Assembly (NCBI GenBank): GCA_035084275.1
Contig: CM068757.1
Span: forward strand, 6,262,001-6,326,000
From: Hydrolagus colliei
Lineage: Eukaryota
Length of the DNA: 64,000 nucleotides
Direction of reading: 5' to 3'
The notes below the pieces were generated by a model. It was not told the origin of the DNA. It did not search any database and worked only from the letters and a program-made list of their open reading frames with translations. Positions 1-51,245 of the stretch are shown one piece after another. The position numbers and the translations under genes are program-made. Every line of letters starts with the position of its first letter. Positions within the stretch are counted from its first letter, which is position 1.

Positions 1-360
1 CAGCAGGCAGCGGGGGAGTAGGTGGGCGTTTAACCCACTGGACCGGAAGTGGGCGGTGTGTGAGGGGGAGGGGCTCTGTGTTTACTTCCGGCCCGGGGCT
101 GGAAGTGGCGGCAGCGCTGACAGCGGCGGCGCCGTCGTTGATGTCTGAGTGTCGCTCGCCGGCTGGTGTGCGGGCAGACGGTTAGCCCCGCGCTCCCGTG
201 GCCGCTCCTCTCTCCTCCTCTCCCGCTCAATGTCTGTCTCCCCCGGCTCAGCACCACTCACTCCTCACCGTTGATGGTCCGGTCACCCGCAGGGCGGCTG
301 GGAGCTGACGACCAAGGGCTGGTCGCCCCGCCCGGCGCTTCTTTCACTGGGGCTCAGCGA
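1..360 (+). promoter_or_regulatory. CpG-island promoter and 5' UTR of MOB2 exon 1
   Basis: Very GC/CpG-rich against an AT-rich intron. ETS/GABP motifs ACCGGAAGT (42-50), ACTTCCGG (84-91) and GGAAGT (101-106), GC box GGGCGG (51-56), no TATA box. Leads into an ATG with strong Kozak context at 360. Confidence 0.85.
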
Positions 361-376
361 TGGACTGGCTCATGGG
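360..376 (+). CDS. MOB2: MOB kinase activator 2, first coding exon (MDWLM-G, phase 2)
   Basis: GCG ATG GAC TGG CTC ATG GG|GTGAGT, with Kozak G at -3 and G at +4 and a consensus donor. The peptide matches the recalled vertebrate MOB2 N-terminus MDWLMGKSKAKPNGKK. Only ~6 residues are visible, and exon 2 was not found in the window. Confidence 0.82.
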
Positions 377-389
377 GTGAGTGTGGATG

Positions 390-1640
390 ACAGACAGAGA
401 CAGAGTGAGAGTGAGTGAGTGTGTGTCAGTGTGAGTGTGAGAGGGAGGGAGTGTGTGTGTGAGAGGGAGTGAGTGAGTGTGTGTGAGAGGGAGGGAGGGA
501 GTGAGTGAATGTGTGTGTGAGAGGGAGGGAGGGAGTGAGTGAGTGTGTGAGGGAGTGAGTGAGTGAATGTGTGTGTGAGGGAGTGAGTGAGTGTGTGAGG
601 GAGTGAGTGAGTGAGTGAATGTGTGTGTGAGGGAGTGAGTGAGTGAATGTGTGAGGGAGTGAGTGAGTGAGTGTGTGTGAGAGGGAGTGAGTGAGTGAAT
701 GTGTGTGTGAGGGAGTGAGTGAGTGTGTGAGGGAGTGAGTGAGTGAGTGTGTGAGTGAGTGAGTGTGTGTGAGAGGGAGTGAGTGAGTGAGTGAGTGTGT
801 GAGGGAGTGAGTGAGTGAATGTGTGTGTGAGGGAGTGAGTAAGTGAATGTGTGTGTGTGTGAGGGAGTGAGTGAGTGTGTGTGAGGGAGTGAGTGAGTGA
901 GTGTGTGAGGGAGTGAGGGAGTGAGTGAGTGTGTGTGTGAGGGAGTGAGTGAATGTGTGTGTGAGGGAGTGAGTAAGTGAATGTGTGTATGTGTGAGGGA
1001 GTGAGTGAGTGTGTGTGAGGGAGTGAGTGAGTGAGTGTGTGAGGGAGTGAGGGAGTGAGTGAGTGTGTGTGTGAGGGAGTGAGTGAATGTGTGTGTGAGG
1101 GAGTGAGTAAGTGAATGTGTGTATGTGTGAGTGAGTGAGTGTGTGTGTATGTGTGTGACAGGGAGTGAGTGAATGTGTATGTGAGGGAGGGAGTAAGTGA
1201 ATGTGTGTGTGTGAGGGAGGGAGGGAGTGAATAAGAGATACAGGGAATGAATGTGAGAGAGAGAACATGAATGAGAGAGAAAGGGTGAATGAGAGAAGGA
1301 GTGGATCAGAGATACAGGGGGTGGGTGTGTGAGAGGGAGAGGGGGGTGAATGAGAGACACAGGGAGTGAATGAGAGATACTCAAGTGAGTGAGCCAGAGA
1401 GTAGCTGGTGGAGTTGGGCGCCGAGGGATTGAGGGAGATGGGGAGGAGTTGAAGTTGAAGGAGGGAGGGAGGGAGATAGGGATTCAGGGGAGTGAGTGAG
1501 ACGGGATGGGAGTGAGTGGGGAGAAAGGAGTGAGGGAGTGACTGGGGTAGTGATGGAGGGAGTGCGACGGGATGGGACAGGCAGGGAGGGAGGGAGAGAG
1601 GGAGGGTGGGGAGGGAGGGAGGGAGAGAGAGAGAGGTGAC
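390..1640. repeat. Compound (GT)n/(GAGT)n/(GAGG)n microsatellite array grading into purine-rich low-complexity sequence
   Basis: Recurrent units such as GAGGGAGTGAGTGAGTGAATGTGTGTGT seen directly. Explains the His/Ser/Leu/Thr pseudo-ORFs on the minus strand. Confidence 0.95.
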
Positions 1641-1654
1641 TGGGGTAGTGAGTC

Positions 1655-1805
1655 AGGGGGGTGGTATATATGGGGGCTGGGGGGGGGTGTATATGGGGGG
1701 TGGGGGGGTGTATATGGGGGGTGGGGGGTGTATATGGGGGGGTGTATATGAAGGGCTGGGGGGTATATATGGGGGGTGGGGGGCTGTACATGGGGGGGGA
1801 GGGGG
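1655..1805 (+). repeat. G-rich minisatellite (G5-8 TGTATAT G5-8), G-quadruplex-prone
   Basis: About seven imperfect TGTATATG units separated by G-runs. Confidence 0.85.
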
Positions 1806-49539: not shown

Positions 49540-50443
49540 ATGAGAAGTGGACAGGACAGGAAAGGGGGGTGTGGGAGGAGGGGGGAACTAAAGCAGGGAC
49601 AGTGTGCTTTATGTGTGATTTATGCAAGGCGTTTCTGCCCAGAGAGAGAGAGAGAGGAGAGAATCTACAGCTCAGTGACTGCTTCCCAAACTCTAGTCCA
49701 GCCCATCTGGGTCCGGAATTTGTCTCCCACAAAAAAAATGTTTTTGTAGCTCTGAAGAGAGAGGAAGTTAGAAGCATATCTGTGCATCTTGATACACACA
49801 GTGGAGGAGGTGAGGGTGTGTGTGTGTGTGTGAGGGGGGGGGGATTGCAGTGGAGTGGCCAACCCTACAACAACTGTTAGTTGATGGCAAAGTGAGATCC
49901 AGTTTATTTAGCAGATGAGGAGTTGGGGGTTTATATACACACCCGCCCTCCCATACACACACACACACACACACAGGGAAAGGAATTATCATTGGAGGGG
50001 GATGAACGTGGCAGACAGTGGATGCAGTTAGTCTGCAGCTAGTTGGGAGCAAAGTAGTCAGTGTAGTGTTAGTGCACTCAGTTTCTTCTTCTTATTATTA
50101 TTATTATTATTGGTGTTGGCTGAAACTGAGTCCCTTCACCTCCTGGACACATTTCTCAGGCGGTGGGACCGTTAATTATTCCCGCAGCCTTGCTGCTTAA
50201 TTAAAGGCAGACAGTCAGTCAGCAGAGTAGAGCAGAGCAAGTCTCTCTCTCTCTCTCCTTCCTTCCTTCCTTCCTTCCTGAGGAGTTTGCAGGAGGATTT
50301 CATAGAATAAATAGCCACTCTTGGAAACGGAACATCGTTTCACACACACACACACACACACACGTATAGACACACACACACACACACAGACAGAAAAAAT
50401 ATTATTCAGTCTGGACTTCATCATCAGGCTCCTGTCTACGAGC
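49540..50443 (+). promoter_or_regulatory. Putative internal promoter and 5' UTR of alternative first exon 1b
   Basis: No recognisable transposons; rich in microsatellites ((GA)n, (GT)n, (CA)n, (TAT)n, (CCTT)n). AT-rich TTAATTAAA (~50197) precedes CAGTCAGTC, and there is no ATG between ~50210 and the start at 50444. Confidence 0.5.
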
Positions 50444-50481
50444 ATGAGGCTGAAGAGGAATGGGTCGTACACGTTGCACAG
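50444..50481 (+). CDS. MOB2: Candidate alternative first coding exon of MOB2 (MRLKRNGSYTLH-R, phase 2)
   Basis: AGC ATG AGG CTG AAG AGG AAT GGG TCG TAC ACG TTG CAC AG|GTACAG. A at -3, same phase as exon 1, CpGs retained. Confidence 0.65.
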
Positions 50482-50864
50482 GTACAGTTAGTGACTAATC
50501 AACCAGTCTGTAACTTGTCCTGTTAGTATTACTGTGTCTCTCTCTCTCTCTCGCTCCCACCCCCAAGCCTCCTCTCCCTCTCCTTTATTCTTTTAAAATA
50601 GAAAATAGCGTGAGGTGGGTCAGGCTGAGAGAAAAGGGGGGGGGGGGGGGTAATAAAAAAAACGCTGTGTGGAGCAGATGTGAGATTAGCATTTATCCTG
50701 ATCTTCCTCGAATCCACTCCCCAAATCAGAGTCAGCAAACAGATGCTGTCTGTGTGTGTTTGTCTGTGTGTGTGTGAGTGTGTGTTTGCAGTGTGAGTTC
50801 AGCCTGCCTTCATGTCTAGGTTAAATATACCTCGGGCTTCAGCAGATGACCTCTTCTTATGTGT

Positions 50865-51207: not shown

Positions 51208-51245
51208 ATGGACATCCTGTTTTGCCTGGATTGCGTCTTGTTTAG
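51208..51245 (+). CDS. MOB2: Candidate alternative first coding exon of MOB2 (MDILFCLDCVLF-R, phase 2)
   Basis: ATG GAC ATC CTG TTT TGC CTG GAT TGC GTC TTG TTT AG|GTATTG. G at +4, same phase as exon 1, preceded by a purine/(CAA)-rich UTR-like stretch and followed by U/UG-rich intron-like sequence. Confidence 0.5.

Follow-up and report, generated by a model that had tools for sequence, protein, structure and literature searches.

The MOB2 locus and its first coding exons

The window analysed here, a stretch of 64,000 nucleotides of Hydrolagus colliei DNA, covers the 5' part of MOB2 in a genome of 1 Gb. The first coding exons 1a, 1b and 1c lie inside the window, and exon 1d and exons 2-5 follow beyond it (Table 1), with exon 2 beginning 13.5 kb past the window end and sharing 98% identity with MOB2 of sharks, rays and chimaeras.

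Table 1 Features of the MOB2 locus (window-extended positions count on past the end of the window).
Feature	Position	Strand	Description
MOB2 exon 1a, coding part	360..376	+	17 nt, phase 2; ancestral-type Met-Asp-Trp start; spliced model with 4 mismatches to Callorhinchus milii X5 (P0193)
Putative promoter and 5' leader of exon 1b	50025..50410	+	AUG-free; CA, CT and CCTT microsatellites; TATA-like TTAATTAAA at 50197-50205 (identified by eye)
Conserved in-frame block of 11 codons	50411..50443	+	starts with CTG; matched in 7 of 8 other lineages at the same spacing; profile rank 1 of 154,100; sharp edge at -11
MOB2 alternative first coding exon 1b	50444..50481	+	38 nt in phase 2, running from the annotated AUG to the donor; encodes the same start as C. 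milii isoform X3 (P0189)
5' splice site of exon 1b (GTACAG)	50482..50487	+	joins exon 2, which follows some 27 kb further on, past the window end
MOB2 alternative first coding exon 1c	51208..51245	+	38 nt with a Cys-rich peptide, phase 2; agrees with the C. milii isoform X4 start (P0192)
MOB2 exon 1d	69607-69713 (window-extended)		outside the window; also the start of human isoform 1; model with 5 mismatches to C. milii
MOB2 exons 2-5	77459-77619, 78274-78367, 86191-86315, 88677-88942 (window-extended)		AG acceptors throughout

A sequence-only reading of this DNA had pointed to a mini-CDS of 38 nt, running from an ATG to a splice donor in the phase of exon 1, and this is what the locus holds. 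The ATG stands at 50444, the last base at 50481 is followed directly by GT (donor CAG/GTACAG), and the exon ends in phase 2, as exon 1a (360-376) does. Spliced to exons 2-5, exon 1b gives a protein of 227 residues with a full-length MOB domain and no internal stop, which differs from the C. milii RefSeq model 'isoform X3' at 4 positions (223/227 identical). Upstream, the preceding ATG lies at 50022, leaving a gap of 422 nt free of ATG in any frame, the third longest of 1471 such gaps in the intron. The region is not a CpG island (CpG o/e 0.34), and exon 1b may have a promoter of its own here. The microsatellites of the putative leader, CA and CT/CCTT, lie at 50340-50390 and 50241-50280, and no nested DUSP-type motif was found in the region.

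Exon 1b is an ancient alternative first exon

Judged by its own letters, exon 1b does not stand out. Including exon 1b itself, 73 ATG-to-phase-2-donor mini-ORFs in the 77-kb intron score at least as high on a crude donor matrix, and the motif hydrophobic-x-R/K-x-x-S/T appears in 30 of 710 stop-free ATG 13-mers. Since exon 1b is not above chance from sequence alone, the case for it rests on conservation.

For this purpose, searches and cluster memberships yielded 433 homologous proteins, 421 of them with a recognisable start of exon 2; this set is a sample, taken among the matches listed (120 of 252 in one search, at most 15 members per cluster). The 13-residue start encoded by exon 1b is present in 56 of the 421 anchored MOB2 proteins among those listed, and in 51 of the 56 it is joined directly to exon 2. 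Its carriers include chimaera, skate, ray, bichir, gar, many teleosts, lungfish, salamanders, frogs, geckos, snakes, turtles and ducks. The 13 residues are identical at the start of the C. milii, skate, ray and bichir models, and Met1 is invariant (56/56). Outside the amphibians, carriers share 11-13 of the 13 residues with the C. milii peptide; salamanders share 7-8 and frogs 5, and the MOB core is 81-94% identical. In 12 of the 16 comparisons shown, 11-13 residues are identical, about as high as in the core. When the 13-residue pattern was back-translated and scanned against the 1-Gb genome, it gave a single match, exactly at exon 1b, and control matches were zero. We therefore regard 50444-50481 as, almost beyond doubt, a real and ancient alternative first coding exon of MOB2, which gives the protein the basic N-terminus that had been proposed and is kept across non-mammalian jawed vertebrates. 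More distantly, the exon 1b motif was absent from 131 new representatives at the 50% level, which include distant MOB2-like proteins, and several of the latter start like exon 1a. The junction from 50481 to exon 2 had no spliced reads in 8 of the 24 listed runs of this species; 7 of the 8 gave nothing, and one, whose kind of data is uncertain, reads straight through the donor like DNA. Most listed runs matched with small shares, probably owing to microsatellite words.

The exon is, however, not hidden, as had been supposed, because RefSeq and UniProt already hold it in predicted isoforms. The C. milii isoform X3 (XP_042197216.1, XP_042197219.1, UniRef V9KHP5) has the same 13-residue start and the same exon-2 junction, and the orthologous RefSeq models skate X2, gar X4, bichir X3, lungfish X4, gecko X2 and teleost mob2a isoforms are alike. 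These are automatic predictions and mostly start at the AUG, unlike the CUG-started form proposed below. No paper in the literature searched names the 13-residue peptides, and the listings of open literature on isoforms, splice variants, first exons and non-AUG starts of MOB2, and on zebrafish mob2a, showed nothing on exon 1b, although more may stand in subscription papers and in bioRxiv supplements; passages of MOB reviews including PMC7096357 and PMC6627106 contain no word starting with 'splic'.

Mammals differ. Their 166 named entries listed include 157 with an exon-2 start, of which 44 begin with exon 1a, 55 with exon 1d and none with exon 1b, a distribution that suggests loss of exon 1b in the mammalian lineage. 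The statement that mammalian MOB2 has alternative N-termini thus holds, but the mammalian alternative is a different exon, 1d. Human MOB2 isoform 1 (Q70IA6-3, 268 aa), with the 1d start, and the 237-aa 1a form follow the same design of phase-2 first exons spliced onto the same exon 2, and the Hydrolagus colliei genome has its own exon 1d outside the window.

Ser8 as a candidate phosphorylation site

Besides localisation, the 13-residue peptide had been read as a phospho-switch for CAMK-group kinases such as AMPK, MARK or PKD, here at Ser8 (AUG numbering). Such a switch might, for example, control 14-3-3 binding or nuclear import. We consider it doubtful that this is its main role. The motif itself is there: all 56 class-1b proteins have a hydrophobic residue at -5 and Arg/Lys at -3 of Ser8, the pattern of hydrophobic -5, basic -4/-3, Gly -1 and aromatic +1 is invariant in the class, and Ser8 is kept in 52 of the 56, diverged frog sequences included. 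The kinase matrices of the PMC9876800 supplement, used whole for AMPKA1 and AMPKA2 and over -5 to about -2 for NDR1/2, MARK1, PRKD1, CAMK2A, MK2 and PKCA, are partly favourable as well, in that positions -5 to -3 fit CAMK2, MK2 and MARK1 and the AMPK matrices favour the peptide residues from -5 to +1. However, the Leu/Ile/Met that AMPK prefers at +4 is replaced by Asn, His, Ser, Arg or Thr (AMPKA2 at +4: Leu 0.159, Asn 0.051), the Phe at -5 in 28 of the 56 proteins, the teleost residue, is disfavoured by PKD (PRKD1 at -5: Phe 0.039 vs Leu 0.200), and MARK1 disfavours Asn at -2. Ser8 itself is Ala in 4 of the 56, all salamanders, and Gly7, the aromatic residue 9 and the hydrophobe at 11 are better conserved than Ser8, a pattern that fits a binding motif too. 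The review PMC6627106 describes, in the passages available, human MOB2 phosphorylation as undocumented as of 2019. A basophilic site at Ser8 is plausible as a modulator, though with rather low probability, and no kinase can be named for it.

Phosphorylation of Ser8 by the partner kinase NDR was considered and rejected, because NDR1/2 disfavour Leu and Phe at -5 (NDR1 raw values in millions: His 66, Leu 12, Phe 12). The NDR consensus HxRxxS/T, given in passages of PMC3849777 and also treated in PMC9711861, does not match the peptide, in which -5 is Leu, Phe or Ile and not His or a basic residue. A supposed precedent is contradicted by passages of PMC3849777. A His-x-Lys-x-x-Thr motif across the junction of exon 1b and exon 2 forms only where His12 meets Thr, in cartilaginous fish and bichir, and is thus not general. 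As a separate observation, the salamander exon 1b (P0086, P0171, P0174, P0281) combines Ala for Ser8 with extra Arg/Lys. By analogy, this resembles a kinase pseudosubstrate.

A conserved block of 11 codons precedes the AUG

Among the 56 class-1b models, 42 start at the AUG and none at an upstream Leu codon; the other 14 run on upstream of the AUG owing to a farther in-frame AUG. We compared one such model from each of 8 lineages, none dropped and without gaps, with the in-frame translation of the Hydrolagus colliei DNA. Over exactly 11 residues upstream of the AUG, the duck, cod, Danio, sucker, frog, snake and salamander models (7/8) matched, and only catfish (P0309) did not; this is a selected sample, as a model without an in-frame AUG farther upstream would not show the block. 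In the 7 lineages the block has Leu at -11, mostly Asp/Glu at -10, hydrophobic residues at -9, -8, -7, -5 and -4, and Lys/Arg at -6. Conservation sets in abruptly: the mean pairwise BLOSUM62 score is 16.4 for -11 to -1 against -6.1 for -22 to -12 (21 pairs each), and the column score rises from -0.17 at -12 to 2.89 at -11, the block edges having been picked after the alignment was viewed. A profile of the 8 other lineages placed 50411 first of 154,100 six-frame windows of the intron (23.4 vs 14.4), and the same site was first at window lengths of 8, 14 and 16, with a thin margin at 8 (13.9 vs 13.4). The 11 codons are conserved at the protein level; the hydrophobic columns of the 7 representatives exchange only among Leu, Ile, Val and Phe, with one Ser in a second snake model. 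This block is the new element of the locus, the AUG-started exon being an isoform that was already predicted. Among the salamanders, 3 of 4 models start at an AUG lying 9 codons above the conserved block.

The first codon of the block, -11 at 50411, reads CTG in this genome, flanked by A at -3 and G at +4; in the 7 matching lineages it is seen as a Leu residue only. The reading frame above the AUG is open for 43 codons without an in-frame ATG, and 50411 is the sole upstream in-frame CTG with both A at -3 and G at +4. The context may be kept elsewhere: of the 7 matching lineages, 5 have Asp/Glu at -10, which entails G at +4, and 6 have a residue at -12 that would allow a purine at -3. An ACG at 50327 has a good context too, but lies above an unconserved microsatellite.

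Proposed CUG initiation and its alternatives

A sharp onset of conservation at Leu/CTG, in a strong context and behind 422 AUG-free bases, points to a conserved CUG-initiated extension. From the conservation pattern, we consider it quite probable that the 11-codon block is translated, and on balance probable that its translation begins at the CUG, which would make it a conserved CUG-initiated amphipathic extension. According to passages of PMC3105428, CUG is the most efficient non-AUG start, initiation depends critically on context, and a localisation signal is often found in the longer form. Judged by the features that these passages give for conserved non-AUG extensions, the block is a candidate for this class. 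The examples described there in 2011 (VANGL2, YPEL1/2/4, C1QL1-4, WDR26) likewise combine an in-frame conserved extension above the annotated AUG with a strong-context CUG that has no AUG upstream of it and is replaced by AUG in some lineages. Unlike those cases as described, the MOB2 block has only 11 codons, belongs to an alternative first exon and did not appear in mammals. It also has no stimulatory hairpin, which would be expected about 15 nt past the CUG and is helpful but not obligatory (z +0.43, with 130 of 200 shuffles folding equally well). Because the extension is not seen in mammals, human-based screens could not have found it. The only MOB2 entry in the untranslated-extension set in the part of PMC9789052 consulted is the human transcript ENST00000329957, which is a transcript other than that of exon 1b. 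A degenerate pattern scan of metagenome contigs for orthologous DNA gave 0 matches.

It is unlikely, in our judgement, that exon 1b starts only at the AUG and that the block before it works at the nucleotide level, within the leader or promoter, its amino-acid conservation being a by-product. Such an arrangement would suit the 42 of 56 models that start at the AUG, the A at -3 of this AUG, its invariant Met1, and the catfish sequence, which has no in-frame block. But the exchanges within the block are conservative and follow the codon periodicity (Leu/Ile/Val/Phe; Lys/Arg), 7 lineages keep exactly the same spacing, and the point where conservation begins is a CTG in a strong context.

The block might also be translated without any non-AUG start, either because a 72-nt phase-2/2 cassette is spliced in behind exon 1a or because each lineage uses an upstream AUG of its own; we rate this as quite improbable. 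A potential acceptor AG at 50408-50409 does stand directly before 50410 in a phase that fits exon 1a, and one partial cod model links exon 1a to a long stretch ending in exon 1b. However, this acceptor demands Ser or Arg at -12, which is present in 1 of the 7 other matching lineages, its tract is only 39% pyrimidine, and none of the 19 models with exon 1a plus extra sequence joins exon 1a directly to the block. As for upstream AUGs, the salamander, Danio, frog and sucker models have one in frame 5-28 codons above the block, but its position differs in every lineage and this genome has none.

A putative membrane tag on MOB2

Returning to CUG initiation, an exon-1b mRNA would yield two proteins by leaky scanning: a short form of 227 residues from the annotated AUG and a long form of 238 residues (+11) from the CUG at 50411. 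The 11 added residues would fold as an amphipathic helix. Together with the residues behind it, which are rich in Lys/Arg on into exon 2, this helix would form a tag that targets the MOB2-NDR1/2 complex to membranes, with phosphorylation of Ser8 modulating the tag. MOB2 would then consist of one NDR-binding core with interchangeable N-terminal tags, namely 1a, 1b, the Cys-rich 1c and the helical 1d. Circumstantially, a CUG start would also give exon 1b a Met-Asp-hydrophobic beginning, as in exons 1a and 1c.

MOB2 and NDR form a textbook pair. For a short amphipathic helix with a Lys/Arg-rich stretch behind it, acidic membranes are the simplest binding partner, and N-terminal anchors of the amphipathic-helix or hydrophobic-plus-polybasic kind are known from the ARF/ARL helices and the MARCKS-type electrostatic switch. 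The extended exon 1b resembles these anchors in having a predicted short hydrophobic helix and then a Lys/Arg-rich stretch with a basophilic Ser; unlike them it carries no myristoylation Gly, and membrane binding is proposed by analogy only. The hydrophobic moment of the block is 0.56, with a low value of 0.19 in the snake. The AlphaFold prediction for the Danio model with the extension has a helix at the block, but at an N-terminal pLDDT below 50 this is uninformative and offers no usable evidence on docking. By analogy, the extension may act as a membrane tag, which we hold only tentatively. That the helix and the Arg/Lys/Ser-rich stretch form a mitochondrial presequence or a protein-docking helix, and not a plasma-membrane or endomembrane anchor, seems quite improbable, for although the moment of the block and an amphipathic, basic and hydroxyl-rich composition resembling mitochondrial presequences would suit it, an acidic residue is kept at position 2 in most lineages.

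Taken as a whole, the explanation we lean towards is an ancient exon 1b that probably yields both AUG and CUG forms, of which the long form would direct MOB2-NDR1/2 to a membrane by its tag. The conserved amphipathic block lends indirect support to the localisation signal that the sequence-only reading had offered beside the phospho-switch, and the phospho-switch is compatible with it as an added layer. The broader picture is more tentative: a CUG-initiated extension of 11 residues may have been kept from chimaeras to birds and missed by the annotations compared here, exons 1b and 1c may provide membrane-addressed MOB2 that places NDR1/2 at membranes in non-mammalian vertebrates, and both exons may have been lost in mammals.

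In passages of PMC7096357, membrane-targeted MOB1 is described as relocating and activating NDR kinases and MOB2 as competing with MOB1, and two questions are called open: whether the effect of MOB2 on NDR1/2 is activation or inhibition, and whether the location of NDR is set by MOBs in animals. A natural set of N-terminal tags on one MOB2 core would make the question of localisation directly testable in zebrafish or chick. If the CUG start is conserved, the isoform models of fish, amphibians, reptiles and birds are truncated, and the few conserved non-AUG extensions on record would gain a deep non-mammalian case; without the CUG block, exon 1b would be an ordinary isoform of the kind predicted before.

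Other N-terminal classes of MOB2

Exon 1c, which was absent from the sequence-only reading, is found in 25 of the proteins listed, from sharks, teleosts, gar, lungfish, birds and turtles, and in 0 of the 157 mammalian entries. With Gly2 in teleosts and gar, its Cys-rich start is a candidate lipid-modified membrane tag. Exon 1d contains a second in-frame Met and has a strongly amphipathic end, with a moment of 0.76.

A fifth MOB2 N-terminal class occurs in bichir, sturgeon, paddlefish, gar, herring and lungfish (P0007, P0011, P0363-P0371, P0424), and a motif scan of this intron gave no match to it. Right after exon 1a, positions 380-1780 (+) of the window form a long GA/GT-rich low-complexity tract. 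Finally, the turtle models (P0106, P0157-P0170) carry an extra exon of about 30 residues between each of the first exons (1a-1d) and exon 2.
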